Notes: a model not told the origin generated them from the sequence alone. A stretch of 64,000 nt of DNA from Candidatus Heimdallarchaeum aukensis (GCA_021513695.1 CP084166.1:544001-608000); one strand, 5' to 3'. Shown: positions 1,730 through 54,066, numbered from the stretch's first letter. Numbers and translations are program-made.

Positions 1730-2242
1730 TTGATTCAATTTTGTATAGGAACAATATTGATAGAACAGTTTATCTTTTCTTCAAATAATAAGGAAGCATT
1801 AAAATATAAGTTCAGAAAAAAAGTAATTATGCAAGAGTCTGCACTTTTTCGATATTTTGACCAATTTGAAAGAACGGACTTGCTATTCATCAATTTCGCA
1901 TTTCTGATTATAATTATCCCAGGACTAATTTTCGGATTGTTAAGTAAAATCATTTGGATGTTTTATGTAGCTTTAGTTGTACTTTTTTTCTTTGTTTGTT
2001 GGAATTGTCTTTACTTCTACATAAAATTCAAACTAAACAAACAAGAAAAAGAACTGCTTAAGACTATTCCAAGTTTTCCTCAACTCGACTTCTGTGATTA
2101 TTGTGGTAAATCATTAGAAAATTCAGCTCCTGCAGTGATTGATAATAATCTAATCATTATTTGCCCTCATTGTGGAAAAGAAAATATTGTTAAATCAGAG
2201 GAAGAAATTGAACAAATAAACAATGAACAAGCAGATTCATAA
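1730..2242 (+). CDS. Small membrane protein with a C-terminal zinc-ribbon (CDYCG...CPHCG). The start codon is uncertain (an alternative ATG lies at 1832).
   Basis: Two hydrophobic helices followed by a CxxC...CxxC motif. Confidence 0.4.
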   Translation: MIQFCIGTILIEQFIFSSNNKEALKYKFRKKVIMQESALFRYFDQFERTDLLFINFAFLIIIIPGLIFGLLSKIIWMFYVALVVLFFFVCWNCLYFYIKFKLNKQEKELLKTIPSFPQLDFCDYCGKSLENSAPAVIDNNLIIICPHCGKENIVKSEEEIEQINNEQADS

Positions 2243-2259: not shown

Positions 2260-3960
2260 ATGAAAAAAAAAGCGAAAATACTTTTTTTACTAATTGTTTT
2301 CTCAAACTTAGTTTTTGTTTTGGTAACAAATACAAAAAACATTAATGCATTAAAAGAGCCTATTACTAGTGATTCTAATGAATTTCGAGCGTATAGTTTT
2401 GCTGTTCCTTACATGTACACTGATGTTACGATAAAGAAAGATGGCTCGATAGATATTTCTTATACCATTAACTTTACAAATTTTATTTTTGGAAATACTA
2501 TTGACATTATAGATATTGGTTTTCCTAATAAACATTACAATCTTAAAAGTGTTCAAGCTTGGATAGATGGTTATGAGATTACTGATATAAGGGAGAGTGA
2601 ATACATTAGTATAGGAGTAGAGATACATTTAGGTAGTCATTCTATTTTACCTGGTGAGAGCGCTGTATTGGTAGTTAAAGGGAATAATCCTAAAATGGTT
2701 TTTAAAGACGATACCAAAAAAAATTTTGCTAGTTGTGTTTTCAGGCAAACTTGGTTTAGTTCACAATTTGCTTTTGGAGAAACTGAAAGAAGAGTGAGAT
2801 TTTATTTTCCTGAAGATTTAACTGATATGAATGAAGTAGAAAAAAGAGTTTCGGACACTAGTGTAAATTTCACTAGGGAAGCAGATTACGTCGAGTTTAG
2901 CAAAACCAGTACTCCCTATGATAATGATTTTTATGTGGGTGTAGGAATACCTTCTAACTATGTTGATAAAATGTATAGGGAGTTTTGGGTTTATAGATTT
3001 GATGAACTTGTTGCTCAAGCATTGTTTTTCCTTTTCTTCTTTGGATTCTTTGGGATATTTTTCTATGTTTTTTGTATTTATCCCCTAAAAGAAAGAAAAA
3101 GATATCTCCCTCCAACTATAAAGTCGACAGGAGGAGCTGTAAGAATGGGTTTGAAACCTTCCGAAGCAGCTATTATCTTAGAAAAACCTCTTACTCTTGT
3201 AGCTTCTTTAGTTATTTACGAAATGATGTCAGAAGGATTGATTACTGTTAAACAAAAAGAACCCTTAAGATTTAAAGTTGAGATATCTACTAAAGAGAAA
3301 TCCAAATTACCTACTTACCAGAAGCATATTATTAATGGAATTAAGAAAAGAGAAAAATCAGACTTAAAATGGGAAAAGGGAAGTGTTTCTGGTGCTCGAC
3401 CACACGATCCTTTTGACCAAGATTACATAAGAAAAGCGCTTTTATCCTTAATTAGAGAAACAACTATGAAAATGAAAGGGTATAACCTGAAGAAAACAAA
3501 GAAGTACTATAATGAATTAATAGAAAGAGCTTGGCAAGACATGAAAAAAGAAAGACCAGAACTAGAAAATGCTTTCCTATGGATAATGATAGATGAAGAT
3601 TATGACGACAGAATGAAAGATCATTATCATGACTATTATTACCCTTCATGGTATGTTTATCATTATCATACCCATTATTATGGTAGAAATAGAGGAAGAG
3701 GAAGAGATAGGATAACTGGTAGAGAATTAAGAAAATCTGGTTTTAGAAGAACAAAGATAACAGATAGGGGACAGATAATCCCTGGAACAGATTTCAAGCG
3801 AATACAAAAAAATATTGTTAGAAGCCCAAGAAAATTACTTTCGTCAGTAAAATCAAAGACCAGACCTGTTTCTAGCAGCTCGGGAAGAAGTGGAGGGGGA
3901 GGAGGAGGTTGTGCTTGTGCTTGTGCTTGCGCTTGCGCTTGTGCCGGAGGAGGACGATAA
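2260..3960 (+). CDS. DUF2207-like membrane protein with a (Cys-Ala)6 C-terminal tail. It has a signal anchor, an extracellular domain, a polytopic TM block, a cytoplasmic domain, a His/Tyr-rich stretch, and a Gly-rich tail ending GGGGGGCACACACACACAGGGR.
   Basis: GGAG Shine-Dalgarno sequence 8 nt upstream. The architecture and Gly-rich C-terminus resemble DUF2207/YciQ-like proteins. Its stop codon lies 1 nt before the start of the next gene. Confidence 0.6.
   Translation: MKKKAKILFLLIVFSNLVFVLVTNTKNINALKEPITSDSNEFRAYSFAVPYMYTDVTIKKDGSIDISYTINFTNFIFGNTIDIIDIGFPNKHYNLKSVQAWIDGYEITDIRESEYISIGVEIHLGSHSILPGESAVLVVKGNNPKMVFKDDTKKNFASCVFRQTWFSSQFAFGETERRVRFYFPEDLTDMNEVEKRVSDTSVNFTREADYVEFSKTSTPYDNDFYVGVGIPSNYVDKMYREFWVYRFDELVAQALFFLFFFGFFGIFFYVFCIYPLKERKRYLPPTIKSTGGAVRMGLKPSEAAIILEKPLTLVASLVIYEMMSEGLITVKQKEPLRFKVEISTKEKSKLPTYQKHIINGIKKREKSDLKWEKGSVSGARPHDPFDQDYIRKALLSLIRETTMKMKGYNLKKTKKYYNELIERAWQDMKKERPELENAFLWIMIDEDYDDRMKDHYHDYYYPSWYVYHYHTHYYGRNRGRGRDRITGRELRKSGFRRTKITDRGQIIPGTDFKRIQKNIVRSPRKLLSSVKSKTRPVSSSSGRSGGGGGGCACACACACACAGGGR
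3901..3936 (+). repeat. Imperfect hexanucleotide microsatellite (TGYGCY)x6 inside the CDS, encoding (Cys-Ala)6
   Basis: The sequence reads tgtgct tgtgct tgtgct tgcgct tgcgct tgtgcc. It is preceded by a G-run (ggggga gga gga ggt). Confidence 0.8.
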
Positions 3961-3961
3961 A

Positions 3962-5284
3962 ATGCCAAAAGAAGAAAAAGAAGAACAGAAAAAGATGTTT
4001 CACCTAAGAAACGAAGAAACCTTTACTAGAATGCATTTAAGGAAAGAAAAGAAAGGACAAGGAATACTAATAGTTAACGCCAACAGAATCTTTCACCTAA
4101 ATAAAACAGCAACTCAATTCGTTGAATACATAATAGAAGGAAAAAAAGATGAAGAAATAATAAGAAAAATGGTTAACAAATACAATGTTCACGAATCACA
4201 AATAAGAACAGATCTAATGAATCTGAAGATCGCAATAGAAGATATAGTAAATAAACCAGATATTGACCCGGTACAAGAACTGTTTGACGAAGATATGGAA
4301 ATGGAGAGAATGATTTTTTCAGCTCCATTGAGAATGGACTTGGCTATAACTTACAAATGCAATAACAAATGTGTCAAATGCTACGTTGAAGAAAAAAGAG
4401 AAATAAAAGAATTAACAACAGAAGAATGGAAAAAAGTCTTAGATAAACTGTGGGATATAGGTATTCCCCACGTAACATTTACTGGAGGAGAACCCACAAC
4501 AAGAAAAGATTTAGTGAAACTAGTAGAATACGCAGAAGATATAGGCATAGTAACGGGACTAATAACCAACGGAAGAAACCTGAAAGACAAAAAGTTAGTA
4601 GAAGAACTAGTAGCAGCAGGAATAGATCATTTCCAAATAACAATAGAAAGCCATATACCAGAAGTACATGATAAATTAACAGGAGTAAAAGGATCGTGGG
4701 AAGAAACAGTAGAAGGAATAAAAAACGTTGTACCTACACCAGTGTTTATTATGACAAACACAACTCTAGTTCCAGAAAACATAAAAGAAATAGATAAAAC
4801 AATAGAATTTTTAGCTAAGTTGGGAATAGACCACTTCGCAGCAAACGGAATAATAAAAGCTGGAGGAGGAAAAGATGACTCACTAGACTTAACAGTAGAA
4901 GAACTAAACAAAACACTAGATACAATAATGAAGAAAGCTGAAGAAATGAAAATGAGATTTCTATGGTACTCACCAACAAGATATTGTGAATTTAACCCAG
5001 TAAAGAAAGGACTAGGAGTAAAACAATGTACAGCAGGAAATATAGCAATGGCAATAGAACCAGATGGACAAGTAATACCATGCCAAAGCTACTTTGAACC
5101 ACTAGGAAACATATTAACTACTCCATGGAAAAAAATATGGAACCATAAAACAACAAAAAGAATAAGAAAAAGAAAATACTTGCCCCAAGAATGCAAAGGC
5201 TGCCCAGAAAAAGAAATATGCGGAGGAGGATGCCCTCTAAATTATCAAGCGCCAATAACTGTTTGCAGAGACGCTCTTTCGTAA
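3962..5284 (+). CDS. Radical SAM/SPASM-domain peptide-modifying enzyme with an N-terminal PqqD-like RRE domain
   Basis: GGAGGA Shine-Dalgarno then ATG at 3962. The CNNKCVKC stretch matches CxxxCxxC. A C-terminal Cys-rich SPASM region is present (CTAGN...CQ...CKGCPEKEICGGGCP). The N-terminal ~80 aa (GILIVNANRIFHLNKTATQFVEYI...) fits a PqqD/RRE fold. The annotated ORF start at 3890 is an upstream in-frame extension overlapping the previous gene. Confidence 0.75.
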   Translation: MPKEEKEEQKKMFHLRNEETFTRMHLRKEKKGQGILIVNANRIFHLNKTATQFVEYIIEGKKDEEIIRKMVNKYNVHESQIRTDLMNLKIAIEDIVNKPDIDPVQELFDEDMEMERMIFSAPLRMDLAITYKCNNKCVKCYVEEKREIKELTTEEWKKVLDKLWDIGIPHVTFTGGEPTTRKDLVKLVEYAEDIGIVTGLITNGRNLKDKKLVEELVAAGIDHFQITIESHIPEVHDKLTGVKGSWEETVEGIKNVVPTPVFIMTNTTLVPENIKEIDKTIEFLAKLGIDHFAANGIIKAGGGKDDSLDLTVEELNKTLDTIMKKAEEMKMRFLWYSPTRYCEFNPVKKGLGVKQCTAGNIAMAIEPDGQVIPCQSYFEPLGNILTTPWKKIWNHKTTKRIRKRKYLPQECKGCPEKEICGGGCPLNYQAPITVCRDALS

Positions 5285-5348
5285 TCTTAACAATATCAAA
5301 AAAAATAAAAAAGTATTTTTTACCATTTTTAATAGGATAAGTAAAATT

Positions 5349-5640
5349 ACATCTTTTTTCCTTTTCCTGTTTTTTCCCATTCACTAAACTTATCTATTAG
5401 TTCGTCAATAGCATGTGTTATCTCTTCAGTGATTTTTTCAACAATAATTAATTTGTCATCTTCAATTCGAATAGACAAAATAGAACCGAGTTCAACCAAC
5501 CATAATTCAAGTTCATTAAGATCTTCAAAACCTAATTTTTCCTGTAAAGTAATTAAAGGTATTTTAGAATTATTAGATAGGACTTTGAATAATTTTTAGC
5601 TCTTTCTATTTCAATATCGCGAGAATCAAAATAGTTCATT
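5349..5640 (-). pseudogene. Orphan 3' cassette that is a near-identical copy of the last ~95 codons of gene B (8618-8900). It encodes ...IPLITLQEKLGFEDLNELELWLVELGSILSIRIEDDKLIIVEKITEEITHAIDELIDKFSEWEKTGKGKKM* and has no start codon, with an upstream in-frame stop and a 1-nt deletion.
   Basis: Direct nucleotide comparison of 5341-5640 against 8621-8900 shows about 90-95% identity. The homology begins at the stop codon of gene A (gaagaaaaaatgaactattttgattctcg compared with gaagaaaaaataaactattttgattctcg in gene B). Confidence 0.65.
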
Positions 5641-8335
5641 TTTTCTTCCCCTTTCCTTTACGTTCCCACTCACTGAACTGTTTGAGTAAATCATCAATAG
5701 CTGTAGTCATATCTTCAGAAACAAATTCGCCCTCAAATTGTAAGTCAAAGATTACTTCGTCTCTTTCGATTCTATTCGGTACATCCTTTGAATAGATGTA
5801 TAACCATAATTTCATAATCTCTATATCTTCAAAATCTAATAATGGAGAAAGCTTATTTAGACTTATTTTGTCGTAAACTAAACTAATTTTCTTAAGACGG
5901 TCAAGTATTTTATTATTAGTTTTTTTATCATTAATTATTTTTGTTAATTCAGACAATGTTCTATTATCTTCATCCAGTATATCTTTAACTATCGTTACTT
6001 TCTTTGTTGCAAAATCAAAAACTTCTGACCAATTATGTGCAAAAGATGGAAATAGTTTCTTAATTGTAGAAAAAGTATCACCTTTAAAAGAGATTATATA
6101 ATTTAAGAATGATAGCAATTTTTTATAACTAGCTATTATAGGCTTAAACTCTTGATCAGACCACTTTTCAATGAGTTTAGTTAACATTTCTTTTTTGAAA
6201 CTTTGTAAATTTGTAAAATTAATAAGATCAACTAAATAATTTATTTTACTGAGAACGGTATTATTTACGAAATAATCTAATTGATCATATGTTTTGTTTA
6301 ATTGTTCTCTTTCTATTTTTCTTAATTTTCTCTTATTTGAGCTGATAAAAAGGTAATCTTTAAGAAATAGTTTCAATTTTTCAAGATATTTTATAATCTC
6401 CTCAATTGAACTAATAAATAATAGTAAGGAAGAAGTGTTTATGAAAATCTTATCAAATTCTTCATTTAATTTAGTTTGCATATTTATTATCCCTGAGAAA
6501 TTTTCTCTTATCCTTAACCTTATTTTGTGTTCATAAACAAAAAAAAGAGGTAGGATAACAGATATAAGAAGTATAAGAGAAAAACATATTTTTTCAATTG
6601 GTTTAAGATAAATACTCTTTTTTAAAGGATTTTTACCATTTTCTATTTCCCAACCATCGAACAAACCGTCATCATCAGTATCAGAATCTAAAGGGTCAGT
6701 TCCAGCTAGATACTCTTCCAAATTAGTTAAACCATCTCCGTCCAGATCTTCTGATGAATCATATAACAAAGGGTTTAATGAATTACATAGTTCCCATCCA
6801 TCAGGTATGCCATCATCATCAGTATCGGGATCATTAGGGTCAGTTCCAGCTTGATATTCTTCTAAATTAGTTAAACTGTCTTTATCTTTGTCAACATAAG
6901 TGTCATTACTCAAAGGATTCAATAAAAATTCTACTTCCCAACTATCAGGTATGCCATCATCATCAGTATCAGAATCTAAAGGGTCAGTAGAATGCAAGGT
7001 CACTTCTTGAAAATCAGATAAGCCATCATCGTCAGTGTCTGAATCTAAAGGGTCAGTACTGTAAATAGTCACTTCTTGAAAATCAGAAAAGCCATCATCG
7101 TCAGTGTCTGAATCTAAAGGGTCAGTACTGTAAATAGTCACTTCATCTCCATCGTTCAAGCTATCATCGTCAGTGTCTGAATCTAAAGGGTCAGTACTGT
7201 AAATAGTCACTTCATCTCCATCGTTCAAGCTATCATCGTCAGTGTCAGAATCCAAAGGGTCAGTAGAATTCTGATACTCTTCTAAATTAGTTAATCCATC
7301 GCTATCTGGGTCTTCTGCAGAATCATCGATAGTAGTGTTTAAACCATTATTTTCTTCCCATTTGTCAAGCATATTATCTTGGTCTAAGTCTACATGCATG
7401 GGATAAGGATCAAAATTGTTAGCTGAACCATCTATAGGATATGGTCCTGTTCCACTCCAGTCATACCAATAGTTACCTGTTGTACCAGAATAAAATTTAT
7501 TGTATGTCCCATAATCACATGCTTGAGAAGAACCACCTAGATTATTTTTTATTAAGAAGTTTTTTACAAATATTTCATTTTTAGAGCTCTCATTTAGATA
7601 TATACCATAAGAATAACTATTTATTATAATATTGGAAGTAAAAGTATTTTTGTTAGAAACATCAAAGAGAATACCATAATTACTACTATTTACAACAGTA
7701 TTTGAAATAAAAGAATTGTTAGAACTACAAGAAAAAAATATGCCATCATAATAACTATTTGTTATAGTATTGGAAGTAAAAGTATTATTAAAACTAGAAT
7801 GAAGAGACATACCATAATTACTACATATCACAGAGTTGAAGGTAAAAGTATTATTGTTACTACAATAGAGGAAAATACCTACATTATAGCTATTTATAGT
7901 ATTATTAAATACAGTTATTGTTCCATCTGCAACAGAATAAATATAAATACCATAAAATGAACTTGAACCGCCCCCTTCAAGATAACAATCTCGAATAAGA
8001 ATATACTTTGTTGTCCCAGATATCTTTATACCATGAGATGTAGAGTCAGTTATACTATAGTTTTCAATGACATAAGGGTTATCTTTTGTCCCAGAACCAG
8101 GAAAAACAGTAAGATCATCATCAGACTCAATAAGAATAGGCGAATGAACTGTATAAACTTTTTTTACAGCTCTAGTTTCATTTGAATTTACACTAGACAT
8201 TGAATCTATTGTTATTTGATTAGATTGTAGAACCATATTTTCCTCTATTTGAGTCGAAAGGTAAACAAAGAAAACTGTAGTTGTTATTAATATTAGTACT
8301 AAACTTAATTGTATATAAGTTGCTATTCTTTTCAT
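5636..8335 (-). CDS. Receptor-like surface protein A (899 aa). It has a signal anchor, a parallel beta-helix (PbH1/NosD-like) domain, 8 or more thrombospondin-type-3-like Ca-binding repeats ([18 protein letters not shown]), a single TM helix, and a ~300-aa cytoplasmic coiled-coil domain with a conserved C-terminal module (...[19 protein letters not shown]).
   Basis: Sequence motifs as listed. The GNYWYDW cap motif is shared with other beta-helix paralogs in the window. Confidence 0.8.
6957..7270 (-). repeat. Near-perfect tandem 63-bp repeats (about 5 copies) encoding the TSP3-like units [23 protein letters not shown] of gene A
   Basis: Repeated string atcatcgtcagtgtctgaatctaaagggtcagtactgtaaatagtcacttc... 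is seen directly. Confidence 0.8.
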
Positions 8336-8617: not shown

Positions 8618-11600
8618 TCATTCTTTTTTACCTTTTCCTGTTTTTTCCCATTCACTAAATTTATCTATTAGTTCGTCAATAGCATGTGTTATCTCTTCAG
8701 TGATTTTTTCAACAATAATTAATTTGTCATCTTCAATTCGAATAGACAAAAAAGAGCCAAGCTCAACCAACCATAATTCAAGTTCATTAAGATCTTCAAA
8801 ACCTAATTTTTCTTGTAAAGTGAATAAAGGTATTTCAGAAGTAGTGGATAAAACCTTGAAGAATTCTTTAGCTCTTTCTATTTCAACATCTCGAGAATCA
8901 AAATAGTTTATTTTTTCTTCTATTTTTTCTTTTAATTCATTGTATTGTTCTATTCCATTGCTGGATAGCTCTCCTACTGTCTCTGTGTTCATAACCCTAC
9001 TATAATTTTCTTTCCAGTTAGCTAATTTTTCGTCAAACTCTTTAAAATATAACTCACTTTCTGTTATTTTTCCTTTTAGAGAATACACAAACAGATTATC
9101 TATTTCTTTTCTTAGCTCTTCTCCTTTTTTATCTAACAATATTAAAGGATAAAGATAAATAAGATCTCGAACTTCTTGTCTCTTATTTTCTATTTCTTGT
9201 AATTCCTCTAACAAGTCTTTTCTTTCTTCATTGGTTATTTGTTTAGAAAGAATTTCAAGTTTAGATTGAAAAAAATCACGAAAACCATCTGTTATCTCTA
9301 ATAACTTTTTTACTTTCTCGTAGTTAATATTAATGTTTAAGTCTTGTTGATTAATTATTTCTTTCTCTATTTCTAAAAATTCATCAAAGGTTTGTTTTTT
9401 GTGTATCTTAATTTGATTAATGTACGCATTTAATTCTTCTTTTGAAATTTGCTCATCAATATTTTTGATTTCATAGATCTTGGAAGAAAGCAAAGCATTT
9501 CGTATATCTATTTTTTCTATCTCTTTGGCATAGATTAAGTACTCATTACTTAATTCTTTGAATTCAAAAAAGACTTTAGCTATCCTTTTATTATAGTTAT
9601 CAAGATCAATTTTTTTATAATCGTTCTTTTGCACATAGCTATTGATCTGTTGCAAATCAGAGAGCAGTTGTTGCTTCTTTTCTAATATTTTATTCAACAA
9701 TAAGATATATTCATCTGTAATTTTTCTTTCTAATTCAGTCTTAATTTGTGATAACTTTTCTATAAAATCATTAATCTCCCTTTTCACTTTTTCAAATTCA
9801 ATAATATTTTTCTTTCCAATTATAACCTTAAATAAATTAAACTTTGAGCGATAAGAACCAATAATATTATCTAATTGTTTAGCACTATTAACCCATTCTT
9901 TAAAATTATCAGGTGAATATGATTGAAGAAGATATTCATCTATTTTTTCCTTAAATTTATTAAATTCCAAAAATTGTTTATTATATTCGTTCTTCAGTTG
10001 GATGATTTTTTCTCTCTGTTTTTTCTTAATTAATAAAATAGTTGTTGTTACGCTTCCTATTACCAAAAAACTCAATAGACAGGAAAGCACAATTTTAATT
10101 TTTTTTGCTCGAGGATTGCTTAATTTATTTAATGGATCACTTCCATAAATGATTATTTCATCATAATCATTAAATTTGTCATCATCTGTGTCATTTTTTG
10201 TTGGATCTGTGTGGTAAGCATATATTTCTTCATAATCAGATAAACCATCTCCATCAGTGTCAGAATCTATGGGATCAGTTAAGAAAACTATAACTTCTTG
10301 ATAATCAGTTAAACCGTCGCTATCTGAGTCTTTCTTATAAGGAAAAGAATGAAATATTTTAACTTCTTCATAATCACTTAATTTATCATCATCAAAATCC
10401 CCATCTCTTATACATCCTCCAAAAATAACTTCATCATAATCATTAAGACCATCACCATCAGTGTCATTGAAATTAGGATTAGCCATCCACTGATATTCTT
10501 CTAAATTTGATAAGCCATCTCCATCAGAATCGGCCTTGGAGTCATCTAAATTATAGACAATTTCCCAAGCATCTTCCATTCCATCAGAATCAGAATCATT
10601 CTCGACAGATGCAACTCGCCTAGGAAAGATATCTCCAATTTTATTTCCATAAATAGAATAAAAATTGGTAGTACCATCCCAATCTTCCCATAAATTGCCA
10701 ACTAGTAAAGTAGGAGAATACCAGTAAGTGTTAGTGCCATAATCTTCATTATTATCTTGAATCTTCAAAAAAGAATTATTGAAGACTATGTTATAATCTC
10801 CTCTTTCACCAATCCTTACTCCCCCTAAACCTGTTCCACAAAAAAGGTTATTATAAATCAAACTGTTACTTACTTCGAAACCATAACTAATAGCAAAATT
10901 AGTTGAATTATAGATATTGTTATTACTAATAACAACGTTATTACATCTTTCTAAATATAATCCATCTGATGTTGCTCCATTTATCAAATTATCAGAGATT
11001 ACAATTTCACTATTACCACTTGACCATAGGCATGAAGCCCAATCATTAGTTGTTTTTTCTAAATTATTGTAAAAGATTTTTATTTTTTTATTATCTCTAA
11101 CTCCAATGCTTCCTGCTCCATTAGTTATACATGTGTTTTTTATAATTGTAACATTTGAAGATTCAGAAACTAAAATACCAAAACCAGAGTTATTGGCAGA
11201 ATAATTATTTTTTATCAAGCTATCTCCAGATTGATGTACCAACACGCCATATTGATTATAAAGAAGAGTACAATTCTCAACTATTACACCACCTGCTCTA
11301 GTTTCAGAAGAAATCCCAACTTCATAACCTTGAATAAAACAATTCCTAATTATTACGAAAGAACTAACATAACGAATAACAATACCACAAGAATTTTCTA
11401 AATACTCAGTATCACCAGTTGAAACTTCATAGTTCTCAATTATATAAGGGTCTGCTTCAGTTCCTGAACCAGGAAACCCAAACTTTACAAAGTCTTCTTC
11501 ACTATTGATTTCTATCGGTGAATGAACAATATAACGTGTTTCTTTAGCATTGTTTCTTTCGGCAATTGCTTTTTGACAAGAACTACCATGGTTTATTTGT

Positions 11601-11875
11601 CTGTAGCTTGAAGTTAAATTATGCTTATCAATTGAGCGATAATTATCATATTCTTTTCCATTCTCTGTTTTATTGTTATTAAATTTAGAAGCCTTTTCAT
11701 CTACATAATTATCTATTAGGTGAAAAGTTGGAGTAAGAAAAAGAAAAATAACTAAAGAAACAATAATTCTTTTATAGTTTGGAAATATATTGTTTAATAT
11801 TTTCATTTCTAGAACAAGTATATACATTACAATAAAAAAATAAAAGTTTTTCTTCACTATTTCTTTTCTTTTCAT
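8618..11875 (-). CDS. Receptor-like surface protein B (1085 aa). It has a signal anchor, a beta-helix domain, TSP3-like repeats (DSDGDGLSNLEEY, DTDGDGLNDYDE...), a TM helix, and a ~550-aa Lys/Glu-rich coiled-coil cytoplasmic domain with the type-2 C-terminal module (...ELIDKFSEWEKTGKGKKE).
   Basis: Paralogous to gene A in the beta-helix and TSP3 repeats. The C-terminal module matches the orphan cassette at 5349-5640. Confidence 0.8.
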   Translation of the reverse strand: MKRKEIVKKNFYFFIVMYILVLEMKILNNIFPNYKRIIVSLVIFLFLTPTFHLIDNYVDEKASKFNNNKTENGKEYDNYRSIDKHNLTSSYRQINHGSSCQKAIAERNNAKETRYIVHSPIEINSEEDFVKFGFPGSGTEADPYIIENYEVSTGDTEYLENSCGIVIRYVSSFVIIRNCFIQGYEVGISSETRAGGVIVENCTLLYNQYGVLVHQSGDSLIKNNYSANNSGFGILVSESSNVTIIKNTCITNGAGSIGVRDNKKIKIFYNNLEKTTNDWASCLWSSGNSEIVISDNLINGATSDGLYLERCNNVVISNNNIYNSTNFAISYGFEVSNSLIYNNLFCGTGLGGVRIGERGDYNIVFNNSFLKIQDNNEDYGTNTYWYSPTLLVGNLWEDWDGTTNFYSIYGNKIGDIFPRRVASVENDSDSDGMEDAWEIVYNLDDSKADSDGDGLSNLEEYQWMANPNFNDTDGDGLNDYDEVIFGGCIRDGDFDDDKLSDYEEVKIFHSFPYKKDSDSDGLTDYQEVIVFLTDPIDSDTDGDGLSDYEEIYAYHTDPTKNDTDDDKFNDYDEIIIYGSDPLNKLSNPRAKKIKIVLSCLLSFLVIGSVTTTILLIKKKQREKIIQLKNEYNKQFLEFNKFKEKIDEYLLQSYSPDNFKEWVNSAKQLDNIIGSYRSKFNLFKVIIGKKNIIEFEKVKREINDFIEKLSQIKTELERKITDEYILLLNKILEKKQQLLSDLQQINSYVQKNDYKKIDLDNYNKRIAKVFFEFKELSNEYLIYAKEIEKIDIRNALLSSKIYEIKNIDEQISKEELNAYINQIKIHKKQTFDEFLEIEKEIINQQDLNININYEKVKKLLEITDGFRDFFQSKLEILSKQITNEERKDLLEELQEIENKRQEVRDLIYLYPLILLDKKGEELRKEIDNLFVYSLKGKITESELYFKEFDEKLANWKENYSRVMNTETVGELSSNGIEQYNELKEKIEEKINYFDSRDVEIERAKEFFKVLSTTSEIPLFTLQEKLGFEDLNELELWLVELGSFLSIRIEDDKLIIVEKITEEITHAIDELIDKFSEWEKTGKGKKE

Positions 11876-53283: not shown

Positions 53284-54066
53284 ATGGGAAAAGCTGAAAA
53301 AGATTATATTGATCGACTAGATGCCCAGTACAAACGTCAATCTGTATGGACGAAAGATTATAGAAATAAGATTTACCGTCAGATTGGTATTAAAGGGGCT
53401 AGAAGAATACTAGAAGTTGGTTGCGGAACAGGGGCCATTACCAAAGAAATTCGAGAAAAAAGCTCTGCTCAAATAACAGCCATCGATAGAGATCATTTAG
53501 TTATTGCTACTGCTCAAGAAAATATTACTGAGGTAGAATTTTATCGTATGAGCGTTGAAGAGATGTCCTTTCGGGATGAAACATTTGATATTGTTTTGTG
53601 TAACTATTTCTTTATGTGGCTTAATAAACCTTTCAAGTCTCTTATGGAGATGGTTAGAGTTTGTAAAACTGGAGGATATATTGTTGCTCTTGCAGAACCT
53701 GATTATGGAGGATGGATAGAACATCCTGATTTTGGTTTGGGAAAAAAACACATAGAAGGAATAAAAAAGCAAGGGGCTGACCCATTTATAGGGAGAAAAC
53801 TTCTTTCATTATTTGAATCTGGAGGGTTAGAAACAACTCTCTCTGTTGTTGCTAATGTCTGGGGAAAAGAAAGATTATTAGAACAAATTAAGAATGAATG
53901 GAAACTTGTTTTAGAAACAGAACAGATAAATGATGAAGAATACCAAGAAATAATAACCAAAGAAGTAAAGACTATAGAAGATAACATGAGAATGATTTTC
54001 TTACCTATATTTTCTGCTATAGGTAAAAAAATAAAATGTGTGCAAAAGCCCTCAACTCCTCCATAA
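53284..54066 (+). CDS. Class I SAM-dependent methyltransferase
   Basis: ILEVGCGTGAIT motif I. Confidence 0.75.
   Translation: MGKAEKDYIDRLDAQYKRQSVWTKDYRNKIYRQIGIKGARRILEVGCGTGAITKEIREKSSAQITAIDRDHLVIATAQENITEVEFYRMSVEEMSFRDETFDIVLCNYFFMWLNKPFKSLMEMVRVCKTGGYIVALAEPDYGGWIEHPDFGLGKKHIEGIKKQGADPFIGRKLLSLFESGGLETTLSVVANVWGKERLLEQIKNEWKLVLETEQINDEEYQEIITKEVKTIEDNMRMIFLPIFSAIGKKIKCVQKPSTPP

Follow-up and report, generated by a model that had tools for sequence, protein, structure and literature searches.

A membrane-protein gene and a radical-SAM/SPASM gene in tandem

Within the window (the whole 64,000-nucleotide stretch of Candidatus Heimdallarchaeum aukensis DNA that was analysed), a membrane-protein gene (2260..3960) and a radical-SAM/SPASM enzyme gene (3962..5284) follow one another on the plus strand, which also carries every other feature described here. 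The first encodes a bitopic protein of 566 aa that ends in GGGGGG-(CA)6-GGGR, with the stop codon TAA (3958-3960) directly after GGGR; the second encodes 440 aa with an N-terminal RRE and begins with the ATG at 3962, leaving a single spacer base (3961) between the two genes, as the preliminary description had it. The Gly codons of the tail form a Shine-Dalgarno-like sequence, GGAGGAGGA (3946..3954), 7 nt before this ATG, which may couple translation of the two genes. The unusual C-terminus claimed for the membrane protein is likewise present in the reading frame: a His/Tyr-rich stretch (HYHDYYYPSWYVYHYHTHYY; aa 455-474, nt 3622-3681), an RG-rich stretch (GRNRGRGRDR, aa 475-484), Ser/Gly stretches and (CA)6-GGGR. 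No small Cys-rich ORF that might be a separate precursor lies close to the pair, again as first described, and the first related loci examined contained no Cys-rich ORF besides the tail protein.

In an AlphaFold2 model of the membrane protein (mean pLDDT 77.6), an N-terminal signal or anchor helix (aa 2-31) stands ahead of an extracytoplasmic beta-sandwich domain (2398..2952, aa 47-231). A transmembrane helix follows (2998..3090, aa 247-277, with a hydropathy peak at aa 255-273) and then a cytoplasmic helical, winged-helix-like domain (3157..3690, aa 300-477) that ends in the His/Tyr-rich stretch. Two Lys and Arg residues flank the transmembrane helix on its N-terminal side and five on its C-terminal side (0-2 against 4-8 in relatives), and by the positive-inside rule the C-terminal half of the protein, and with it the tail, is predicted to be cytoplasmic. 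The protein has 26 close homologues, its family comprises about 1,109 clusters at 50% identity, and the candidate precursor membrane proteins range from 480 to 770 aa. Against Pfam and NCBIfam it gives no match at E<=0.01. The label "DUF2207-like" given to it earlier survives only as a weak resemblance: DUF2207_C (PF20990) aligns to aa 297-419 below threshold (13.3 bits, E 0.069, cut-off 33) and gives sub-threshold matches in 5/24 relatives (best E 1e-4), but PF09972, the N-terminal DUF2207 model, has no match. DUF2207 proteins have an extracytoplasmic N-domain, one or more transmembrane segments, a cytoplasmic domain and a Gly-rich C-terminus, and in overall plan the membrane protein is similar. 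Membership of Ribophorin I / OST1 (PF04597), judged by a Pfam match and a role as oligosaccharyltransferase subunit, does not apply to it.

The enzyme has all three of the domains first ascribed to it, each above its Pfam cut-off: the PqqD-type RRE (PF05402; aa 38-86, 26.7 bits against a gathering score of 23.4), Radical_SAM (PF04055; aa 129-284, E 1.4e-28, 100.6 bits against 29.5) and SPASM (PF13186 / TIGR04085; aa 356-415, E 9.7e-12, 45.4 bits against 21.5). The RRE as a whole occupies about aa 12-96 (nt 3995-4249), and the CX3CX2C motif, which in radical-SAM enzymes binds the [4Fe-4S] cluster that cleaves SAM, reads CNNKCVKC (aa 133-140, nt 4358-4381). The SPASM cysteines (aa 342-435, nt 4985-5266) comprise C342, C356-X13-G-X4-C374, C411-X2-C414-X5-C420-X3-C424 and C435, in agreement with the seven-Cys SPASM signature CX9-15GX4C ... 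CX2CX5CX3C ... C; the eight C-terminal Cys are all invariant in 16 homologues, and the domain should hold two auxiliary Fe-S clusters. In CteB an auxiliary cluster reportedly has an open coordination site; because all eight of these Cys are present, the enzyme described here has no obvious site of that kind. Its model (pTM 0.80) has a core of alternating strands and helices, as in the partial TIM barrel of radical-SAM enzymes, together with an RRE-like strand-and-helix module (strands at aa 22-46, helices at 48-58, 63-74 and 78-96). RREs are winged-helix-like modules in which three helices follow a three-stranded sheet, and they bind the leader of a precursor.

By sequence, the closest solved relatives of the enzyme are SkfB, PqqE, SuiB and CteB; the SuiB and CteB alignments begin at aa 29-38 of the enzyme and so take in their RRE. 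Foldseek with the model matches SkfB and SuiB over the full length, RRE included (TM 0.67), and its matches extend to anSME and to the epimerase EpeE (E about 1e-7). These neighbours fit the earlier assignment of the enzyme to the peptide-maturase kind, but no NCBIfam family reaches its cut-off against it. PqqE (TIGR02109) scores best, with 152.7 bits against 381.35, and MftC also matches below its cut-off of 265 bits; SkfB (TIGR04403) scores 113.9 against 300, StsB (NF045574) 107.1 against 625, AlbA (NF012164) 81 against 850 and PapB (NF047865) 72.7 against 340. We therefore do not regard the enzyme as a curated sactipeptide or ranthipeptide maturase, nor as PqqE, for which, in addition, neither a PqqA-like ORF nor pqq genes were seen nearby. 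The top NCBIfam scores are divided among PqqE, NirJ2 and AhbD, families with peptide or tetrapyrrole substrates, and the enzyme lies at much the same distance from each of the characterised SPASM maturases. Since it belongs to no curated maturase family and its scores are divided, its chemistry cannot be predicted from sequence.

Conservation of the Cys-Ala tail and its linkage to the enzyme

The C-terminus of the membrane protein is laid out as in a RiPP precursor, with a conserved motif, a flexible linker and an invariant core. When the last 75 aa of 152 representatives are aligned, the leader-like motif LLSSVKSKTRPV (3835..3870, aa 526-537; family consensus F-T-x-x-V-T-x-x-T-N-P-x-P) alone shows moderate conservation (40-66% per column) over the 60 aa ahead of the repeat, and it is a candidate docking site for the RRE. 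The Ser/Gly/Arg linker SSSSGRSGGGGGG (3871..3909, aa 538-550) is predicted to be disordered, and among relatives it varies in length and keeps its composition. The core tail, CACACACACACA-GGGR (3910..3957, aa 551-566), which includes the (CA)6 repeat (nt 3910-3945, aa 551-562), is the proposed site of modification. Among 24 Asgard relatives the tail forms 14 consecutive invariant columns, the sole long invariant stretch in an alignment whose mean column identity is 34%. Across the 152 representatives CACACAGGGR is 95-100% invariant, the remainder of the protein being about 30% identical, and in the last three repeat units the Ala columns are as invariant as the Cys columns. The general form of the core is (Cys-Ala)n-(Gly)-(Cys-Ala)3-Gly-Gly-Gly-Arg, with a central Gly in most family members that shifts the register of the Cys/Ala alternation. 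Nor is the tail readily lost from orthologues, a point on which the preliminary description had left its proposal exposed: in the best 145 of the roughly 1,109 clusters it is terminal in 133 representatives, the 12 exceptions having the look of truncated fragments. Clostridial proteins carry the motif internally, with about 25 further residues after it, and a free C-terminal Arg is thus not universally required.

Tail and enzyme accompany one another whichever of the two is used as the starting point. When genomes were scanned with the tail DNA pattern alone as query, a radical-SAM homologue lay within 3 kb at 66/67 evaluable loci. The hosts of the tail protein included Anaerolineae, Chloroflexia, Acidobacteriota, Planctomycetota, Hydrogenedentales and Sabulitectum, as well as Methanomassiliicoccales, Thermoplasmatota, Bathyarchaeia, Nanoarchaeia and Heimdallarchaeota, with a rearranged variant in Clostridia; most are anaerobes. 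When metagenome loci were picked by the enzyme alone, the tail protein was found at 69/80, or 69 of the 74 with enough flanking DNA to be evaluable, usually directly upstream. The two surveys establish as a conserved pair what had been noticed at a single locus, and the enzyme homologues are accordingly paired with the tail protein rather than with some other small precursor. The tail gene is missing, with none within roughly 4 kb, at five evaluable enzyme loci (L130, L140, L159, L192 and L207) and also at L007, about 7% of enzyme loci; most of these retain the enzyme and a methyltransferase gene as a pair, and either the tail gene lies elsewhere in the genome or the enzyme has another substrate there. 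Gene order changes while linkage is kept: clostridial loci have the enzyme upstream of the tail gene, and in one Asgard/bacterial subfamily it lies two genes upstream. Of 138 enzymes placed in a tree, 129 have a nearest neighbour with the same tail subtype, an agreement that also follows taxonomy and so fits co-inheritance without being independent proof of it.

Two further genes recur with the pair. The first, at 1829..2242, ends 17 nt ahead of the tail-protein gene and encodes a small membrane protein that has two hydrophobic segments and, at its C-terminus, a CxxC...CxxC zinc ribbon; the frame is open from a TTG at 1730, and the ATG at 1829 is the likely start. Its product is the sole match in the window, and a weak one (E 7.5e-4), to a profile built from zinc-ribbon membrane proteins whose genes immediately precede tail genes at 43-45 other loci, and Pfam gives zinc-ribbon matches below threshold. 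In Clostridia a zinc ribbon is fused within the tail protein itself, and we regard this protein as a probable third component of the module. The second gene encodes a class-I SAM methyltransferase of 260 aa (53284..54066), which is 48 kb away and thus unlinked here. It is the sole window match (hmmsearch, E 8e-76) to a profile of operon-linked methyltransferases and, judged by that match, is the orthologue of the methyltransferase whose gene immediately follows the radical-SAM gene at many other loci; in a related Heimdall genome (L078) the methyltransferase gene adjoins the enzyme gene. Its family matches are to Pfam Methyltransf_11/25 alone, with no curated NCBIfam family matched. Clustering of the neighbours of 88 tail loci revealed no conserved peptidase, protease or exporter.

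Probable modification of the tail and alternative readings

These computations directly show the anatomy of the two proteins, a cytoplasmic location for the tail and close linkage, seen from both sides, across phyla. Judging by gene neighbourhood and sequence conservation, we think it probable that the pair forms a conserved protein-modification module in which the radical-SAM/SPASM enzyme modifies the Cys-Ala tail of the membrane protein, much as the preliminary description had proposed. That the tail is the substrate of the enzyme is supported, and is the best reading of the sequences: neither of the two outcomes named beforehand as refuting it was obtained, and it fits with a cytoplasmic tail, with the leader-like motif and linker that precede it, and with an enzyme whose closest solved relatives are RRE-bearing peptide maturases. 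Points against the module as proposed are the enzyme loci that have no tail gene nearby, the position of the enzyme outside every curated maturase family, its lack of an obvious open site on an auxiliary cluster, the internal motif of Clostridia and the frequency of dense Cys-x-Cys repeats among metal-binding proteins. In such a module the RRE would dock on the leader-like motif, the Cys-Ala repeat would be fed into the active site, and 5'-deoxyadenosyl radical chemistry would modify it. The most likely reaction, and our leading guess as to the chemistry, would be the formation of sulfur-to-carbon thioether cross-links from Cys thiols to Ala carbons, possibly across a CACACA-G-CACACA hairpin. 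A second step may be added by the class-I methyltransferase, which is conserved along with the pair, and the zinc-ribbon membrane protein may act as an accessory partner. Because no protease is conserved in the module, the modified tail probably remains on the membrane protein.

Several other readings of the tail deserve consideration. It could be a meaningless product of slippage on a TGYGCN repeat that lies beside a radical-SAM gene by chance, and the DNA is indeed a hexanucleotide repeat in which the number of units differs by one or two among close relatives. Nevertheless, genomes that differ widely in G+C content, from at least ten phyla, encode this same peptide with different codons, and the tail is the most conserved part of the protein; this conservation, together with the linkage seen from both sides, refutes a chance origin, to which we attach practically no weight. 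It is also possible, though we think it unlikely, that the tail is an unmodified metal- or Fe-S-binding module with six Cys on one face of a beta-hairpin, and that the enzyme is a functional partner that acts on something else or exchanges clusters or electrons with it. The tail has five to seven closely spaced Cys in C-x-C register, dense Cys-x-Cys repeats are typical of metal-binding proteins, and the literature on such motifs concerns metal-binding contexts only (metallothioneins and the C-terminus of CopY); free thiolates and Fe-S clusters are, moreover, stable in the anaerobes in which the module mostly occurs, and a minority of enzyme loci have no tail gene nearby. However, metal sites usually tolerate variation between the ligands and pure metal ligation would not need invariant Ala, whereas Ala stands almost without exception between the Cys of the last three repeat units, and GGGR does not vary. 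The RRE is a domain dedicated to binding peptide substrates, and it, the leader-like motif and linker ahead of the repeat, and the lack of a metal transporter or chaperone in the tail-locus neighbourhoods examined all argue against this reading.

Even as a substrate, the tail might undergo a reaction other than thioether formation, such as epimerisation of alternate residues, conversion of Cys into another group or formation of C-C bonds. D,L-alternating segments are known from the epipeptide, YydF and polytheonamide systems, the strict two-residue alternation of the tail would suit an epimerase acting on every other residue, and EpeE is among the structural matches of an enzyme that is no closer to one characterised SPASM maturase than to another. 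We consider this quite improbable, since EpeE matches far less strongly than SkfB, SuiB, PqqE or CteB, the invariant Cys points to sulfur chemistry, and the register shift at the central Gly is easier to reconcile with a hairpin than with an unbroken D,L helix. Less probable again is that the tail is a sacrificial precursor, in which the enzyme and methyltransferase turn Cys-Ala units into a cofactor or metabolite that is then cut off, as for PQQ or mycofactocin. The PqqE and MftC matches, the resemblance of identical dipeptide units to multi-core precursors and the persistence of the enzyme-methyltransferase pair at some loci with no tail gene nearby would suit this reading, but those two scores are far under the family cut-offs, no protease or peptidase is conserved in the module, and the "leader" would be a conserved, folded membrane protein of about 550 aa, expensive for a single use.

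Relation to known systems and implications

The enzyme is built like those of the SkfB/SkfA, AlbA/subtilosin, CteB/SCIFF and PapB systems, with an N-terminal RRE, a CX3CX2C core and two auxiliary-cluster motifs in its SPASM domain. Sactipeptide and ranthipeptide systems, which are defined by enzyme-made thioether bonds from Cys sulfur to C-alpha (sacti) or to C-beta/gamma (ranthi), share with the locus an adjacent substrate gene, a Cys-rich core and a leader-linker-core layout. Their substrates, however, are peptides of 30-60 aa, whereas the candidate here is the C-terminal end of a membrane protein, itself conserved, of about 550 aa; in the module no leader peptidase or exporter is conserved, and the enzyme scores far under every curated cut-off. 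Taking a RiPP system to be one in which a short precursor loses its leader and a small modified peptide is released, we do not class the module as such, since the candidate precursor is a membrane protein and neither a peptidase nor an exporter is conserved. For a radical-SAM/SPASM enzyme that leaves its modification on a functional protein there are precedents in QhpD, whose target for cross-linking is QhpC, a subunit of quinohemoprotein amine dehydrogenase, and in the anaerobic sulfatase-maturing enzymes (anSMEs), which act on Cys or Ser of sulfatases and are represented among the fold matches. QhpC is a small soluble subunit with Cys-Asp/Glu cross-links, and anSME, unlike the enzyme described here, has no RRE; its target motif, C/S-x-P/A-x-R, is absent from the tail, and we found no similarity between the targets of QhpD or anSME and the membrane protein. 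With PqqE/PqqD/PqqA the locus shares a PqqD-type RRE and an enzyme for which PqqE is both the best NCBIfam match and a solved-structure match. With MftC/MftB/MftA it shares a conserved core at the extreme C-terminus, which in the mycofactocin precursor is the site of reaction. The tail has neither the Glu...Tyr core of PqqA nor the Val-Tyr core of MftA, and no pqq or mft partner genes and no peptidase were seen in the neighbourhoods examined.

We found no Pfam model, NCBIfam model or paper that describes the tail protein, the enzyme subfamily or the motif, and the pairing looks like an undescribed protein-modification system. A fuller version of the proposal, which we offer tentatively, is that of a new post-translational modification system spread over many phyla, in which an RRE-guided radical-SAM/SPASM enzyme, a dedicated methyltransferase and a zinc-ribbon membrane partner would together furnish the invariant cytoplasmic (Cys-Ala)n-GGGR tail with a new covalent structure; the product would stay attached to the membrane protein, the outer domain of which is ribophorin-I-like in its fold. 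This structure might be a ladder of Cys-to-Ala thioethers across the CACACA-G-CACACA hairpin. The module is present in Asgard, Bathy- and methanogen-related archaea, Chloroflexi, Acidobacteriota, Planctomycetota and gut Clostridia, and is therefore either ancient or highly mobile; it is common in anaerobic sediments and guts. That a Cys-Ala motif of 10-16 residues is almost absolutely invariant over such distances implies a strong and specific constraint, whose source could be a novel chemistry of cross-linking or a cofactor or metal site of a new, protein-borne kind. Involving two to four genes and about 60 aa of tail, the system is a concrete and cheap target for experiment, and it provides a functional handle on about 1,100 protein clusters that are annotated as hypothetical only. 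Radical-SAM/SPASM enzymes with an RRE have been studied almost entirely as makers of small-peptide natural products, whereas here this machinery is apparently dedicated to the C-terminus of a conserved membrane protein. If so, RiPP-type chemistry would serve to mature a protein, with the product retained as a functional element in place of a secreted peptide.

The gene pair and its predicted architecture

The tail protein is encoded by a 566-aa ORF at 2260..3960 (+), with TAA at 3958-3960, whose C-terminal part carries a His/Tyr stretch (HYHDYYYPSWYVYHYHTHYY, aa 455-474), an RG-rich segment (GRNRGRGRDR, aa 475-484), a Ser/Gly linker (aa 538-550) and the Cys-Ala repeat (CACACACACACA, aa 551-562), after which come GGGR and then the TAA. 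One base past that stop begins the enzyme gene, a 440-aa ORF running from ATG 3962 to 5284 (+). Pfam recognizes in the enzyme a PqqD-like peptide-recognition domain (RRE) at aa 38-86 (26.7 bits vs a gathering score of 23.4), together with Radical_SAM (E 1.4e-28) and SPASM (E 9.7e-12); the radical-SAM motif CX3CX2C occupies aa 133-140, and the SPASM cysteine pattern is complete (C342, C356-X13-G-X4-C374, C411-X2-C-X5-C-X3-C424, C435). The ORFs, coordinates and Pfam domains bear out the unusual C-terminus and the adjoining RRE-bearing radical-SAM/SPASM enzyme reported in the preliminary description, and, as it also stated, there is no small Cys-rich ORF close to the pair in the window that might serve as a precursor. 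Its label of "DUF2207-like" for the tail protein fared less well: the protein has only a sub-threshold match to DUF2207_C (E 0.069), and 5 of 24 relatives matched, with a best E of 1e-4. The nearest relatives of the two proteins (86% and 94% identity) come from Heimdallarchaeia metagenome-assembled genomes, and the G+C content of the window is ~30%. We note that the codons for the invariant Gly-Gly-Gly of the tail (GGAGGAGGA, 3946-3954) double as a Shine-Dalgarno-like sequence 7 nt before the enzyme ATG.

The AlphaFold2 model of the tail protein (mean pLDDT 77.6) has a signal or anchor helix at the N-terminus, a confident beta-sandwich (aa 47-231), a single transmembrane helix (aa 247-277) and a helical or winged-helix-like domain (aa 300-477); aa 475-509 and the tail at aa 538-566 are predicted to be disordered, with two short helices (aa 512-534) between these stretches. 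Because Lys and Arg are in excess after the transmembrane helix (2 before and 5 after; 0-2 before and 4-8 after in relatives), the positive-inside rule would place the tail in the cytoplasm, within reach of an oxygen-sensitive Fe-S enzyme. Run by sequence against solved structures, the tail-protein profile returned no matches. The enzyme model (pTM 0.80) opens with strands and then three helices, the arrangement expected of an RRE, and the best solved matches of the enzyme are SkfB, SuiB (full-length TM 0.67), PqqE, CteB and anSME.

Two large paralogous proteins of 899 and 1,085 aa are encoded beside the pair, at 5636-8335 (-) and 8618-11875 (-). Both have a conserved N-terminal region, Asp-rich repeats, a hydrophobic segment, a long Lys/Glu-rich low-complexity region and a common C-terminus (...FSEWE+xGKGKK), and a free-standing 50-aa ORF at 5347-5499 (-) is near-identical to the final 50 residues of the 1,085-aa protein.

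Conservation of the tail and its linkage to the enzyme

Among the 26 first-round homologues of the tail protein (28-47% identity, all Asgard), every C-terminally complete member ends in CACACA(G)CACACAGGGR. An alignment of 24 tail-protein sequences has a mean column identity of 34%, yet its final 14 columns are invariant, and nowhere else do invariant columns form a run. Searching 1.84 billion cluster representatives with a profile recovered 1,109 tail-protein clusters at E<=1e-3, with 377 remaining at E<=1e-30. Such a tail terminates 133 of the 145 best new representatives of the 1,109 clusters, and the other 12 stop mid-domain and look truncated; loss of the tail from orthologues, named beforehand as speaking against the proposal that the tail is the substrate of the enzyme, was therefore not seen. 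Conservation of CACACAGGGR over 152 representatives reaches 95-100%, the Ala positions being as strongly kept as the Cys positions. The same set shows moderate conservation of a motif 15-25 residues before the tail core, F-T-x-x-V-T-x-x-T-N-P-x-P, which in the window reads LLSSVKSKTRPV; between this motif and the core is a Gly/Ser/Arg linker whose length varies. This order of leader-like motif, linker and core is also the order found in the precursors of peptide natural products. Six members (P0147, P0153, P0165, P0172, P0186 and P0232) are longer (766-948 aa), being extended at the N-terminus by ~230-350 aa. No Pfam domains were found in these six, and for five of them HMMER divides the match into two or three stretches, a possible sign of a duplicated N-domain.

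At two Asgard loci (L001 and L005) the enzyme gene follows the tail gene after 2 nt or 19 nt, and in one Asgard subfamily (L003) it lies two genes upstream. Bathyarchaeia, among other groups, have homologues of the enzyme with 47-51% identity, and those at L006 and L008 have a tail protein directly upstream. A scan of one genome per GTDB species, with CACACA-x-GG as its sole DNA pattern, found at least 119 stretches, and ~88 of those listed are genuine tail proteins (E ~1e-5 to 1e-215 to the profile of the 24-sequence alignment), the remainder being matches by chance, either internal or out of frame, in genomes of high G+C. The hosts among the matches listed are both bacterial (Anaerolineae/Chloroflexia, Acidobacteriota, Planctomycetota, Hydrogenedentales and Sabulitectum) and archaeal (Methanomassiliicoccales, Thermoplasmatota, Bathyarchaeia, Nanoarchaeia and Heimdallarchaeota), and at 66 of the 67 listed loci with sufficient flanking DNA a radical-SAM homologue lies <=3 kb from the tail gene. 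Metagenome contigs were also searched with the enzyme alignment alone, and among the best 80 of 588 relatives (43-68% identity) the tail protein is present at 69 loci, almost always directly upstream; six of the 11 other loci have <700 nt of upstream DNA, which leaves five evaluable loci without a tail protein.

Linkage of enzyme homologues to a different small precursor, the other outcome that the preliminary description had set against its own proposal, was likewise not encountered. With the tail protein at 69/80 loci, and no small Cys-rich ORF near the pair in the window or at the first related loci examined, we reject a free small precursor as the substrate of the enzyme. Slippage can also be rejected as the origin of the (CA) repeat, given the invariance of the tail in the alignment, its retention by 133/145 representatives and the 66/67 linkage among the matches listed. 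We note that six loci (L130, L140, L159, L192, L207 and L007) encode an enzyme that is ~45-50% identical and have no tail protein within ~2-4 kb. Most tail-less loci, the Edwardsbacteria contig L007 included, retain the enzyme-methyltransferase pair, with the methyltransferase directly downstream. At these six loci the substrate gene may be elsewhere in the genome, or the enzyme may use another substrate.

Further components and variants of the module

Clustering the neighbours of the 88 listed tail loci, with antisense artefacts set aside, identified two more conserved families and no conserved peptidase or transporter. One, a ~130-aa membrane protein with a C-terminal zinc ribbon, is encoded directly upstream of the tail gene at 43-45 of the listed loci; the other, a class-I SAM methyltransferase, is encoded directly downstream of the enzyme gene at 34-44 of them, giving a canonical order of zinc-ribbon protein, tail protein, radical-SAM enzyme and methyltransferase. 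The candidate zinc-ribbon protein in the window, directly upstream of the tail gene at 1829..2242, combines two hydrophobic segments with a CxxC...CxxC ribbon and is the only window ORF that matches the zinc-ribbon profile, which it does weakly (E 7.5e-4). The methyltransferase orthologue is at 53284..54066 (+), 48 kb from the module (E 8e-76 to the operon-linked profile), and in a related Heimdall genome (L078) the methyltransferase gene adjoins the enzyme gene.

The tail itself occurs in four recurrent subtypes: ...(CA)5-6-GGGR, as in the window; (CA)3-5-G-(CA)3-GGGR, the commonest; a Bathyarchaeial form, CVCAC-xx-CACACAC-VS-CACACA-[GHS]GG-xx; and a Clostridial form in which the motif is internal (...CACACACAGGGR-AGC[ST]-x-KDFY plus ~20 aa), the zinc ribbon is fused and the enzyme gene is upstream. 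In a neighbour-joining tree 129 of 138 enzymes share the tail subtype of their nearest neighbour, which fits co-inheritance but tracks taxonomy too. The rearranged variant from gut Firmicutes (Clostridia, Lachnospiraceae and Oscillospiraceae; within L009-L127) is 330-580 aa long and keeps the same N-domain motifs, with a zinc ribbon fused internally (CPNCGA...CxYCG), the repeat, GGGR-AGC[ST]-x-KDFY and then ~20 residues; examples are L046:2001-3278 (-), L046:4828-6120 (+) and L042:2903-4243 (-), and at L046 a single enzyme gene is flanked by two tail-protein genes. The subfamily with CACACAG-CACACACA-GGGR tails has a second radical-SAM-like paralogue, placed so as to separate the tail gene from the true enzyme gene (L003:4608-5975, L060:1-1629 and L070:2198-4285); this paralogue has lost CX3CX2C, keeps the SPASM CX2CX5CX3C and, judged by these motifs, looks like a "pseudo-SAM/SPASM" partner.

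One tail homologue, L006:4803-5999 from Bathyarchaeota CP070659.1, has an in-frame TGA at a Cys position (...RCVCA-TGA-ASCACACACVSCACACAGGGAR*), where the gene caller ended the gene. No second in-frame TGA in a genuine tail was found at any of the 200 loci checked; we therefore treat this one as an isolated mutation or sequencing error and, as it is confined to one Bathyarchaeota genome, reject selenocysteine as a feature of the system.

The tail as a likely substrate

The best-supported reading is that the tail protein and the enzyme form an enzyme-substrate pair. The RRE would dock on the leader-like motif of the tail protein, the linker would allow the Cys-Ala core to reach the active site, and the repeat would there be modified by radical chemistry; the methyltransferase might contribute a second step, and the modified product would remain on the membrane protein. 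Thioether cross-linking is our leading guess for the chemistry, because the Cys residues are invariant, Ala is a sactipeptide acceptor residue (established as such in thuricin CD, for example) and the nearest solved relatives include thioether-forming enzymes. Pairing of two CACACA halves in a hairpin about the central Gly has geometric appeal and is purely speculative. It is also possible that the tail is a metal- or cluster-binding module or a sacrificial cofactor precursor, or that its chemistry is epimerisation. The enzyme scores well under every curated family cut-off, with its top NCBIfam scores spread over PqqE, NirJ2, AhbD, SkfB and MftC, and sequence cannot settle which chemistry it performs.

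Neither the tail protein nor its bacterial and clostridial counterparts have a Pfam or NCBIfam match above cut-off, no curated model reaches its cut-off for the archaeal or bacterial versions of the enzyme or methyltransferase, and NCBIfam, into which the TIGRFAMs models have been taken, contains none that represents the system. The annotations of the ten cluster representatives examined are all unnamed or "hypothetical protein", and one homologue is annotated "conserved membrane protein of unknown function". In the full-text literature we found no published account of the system or of the motif CACACAGGG; an early mention in Haft & Basu 2011 is possible. Neither this class of enzyme nor the principle of RRE-guided modification is new; the novelty lies in a large conserved membrane protein as the apparent substrate, an invariant Cys-Ala motif and a four-gene module, and the Cys-Ala tail system possibly harbours new chemistry as well.
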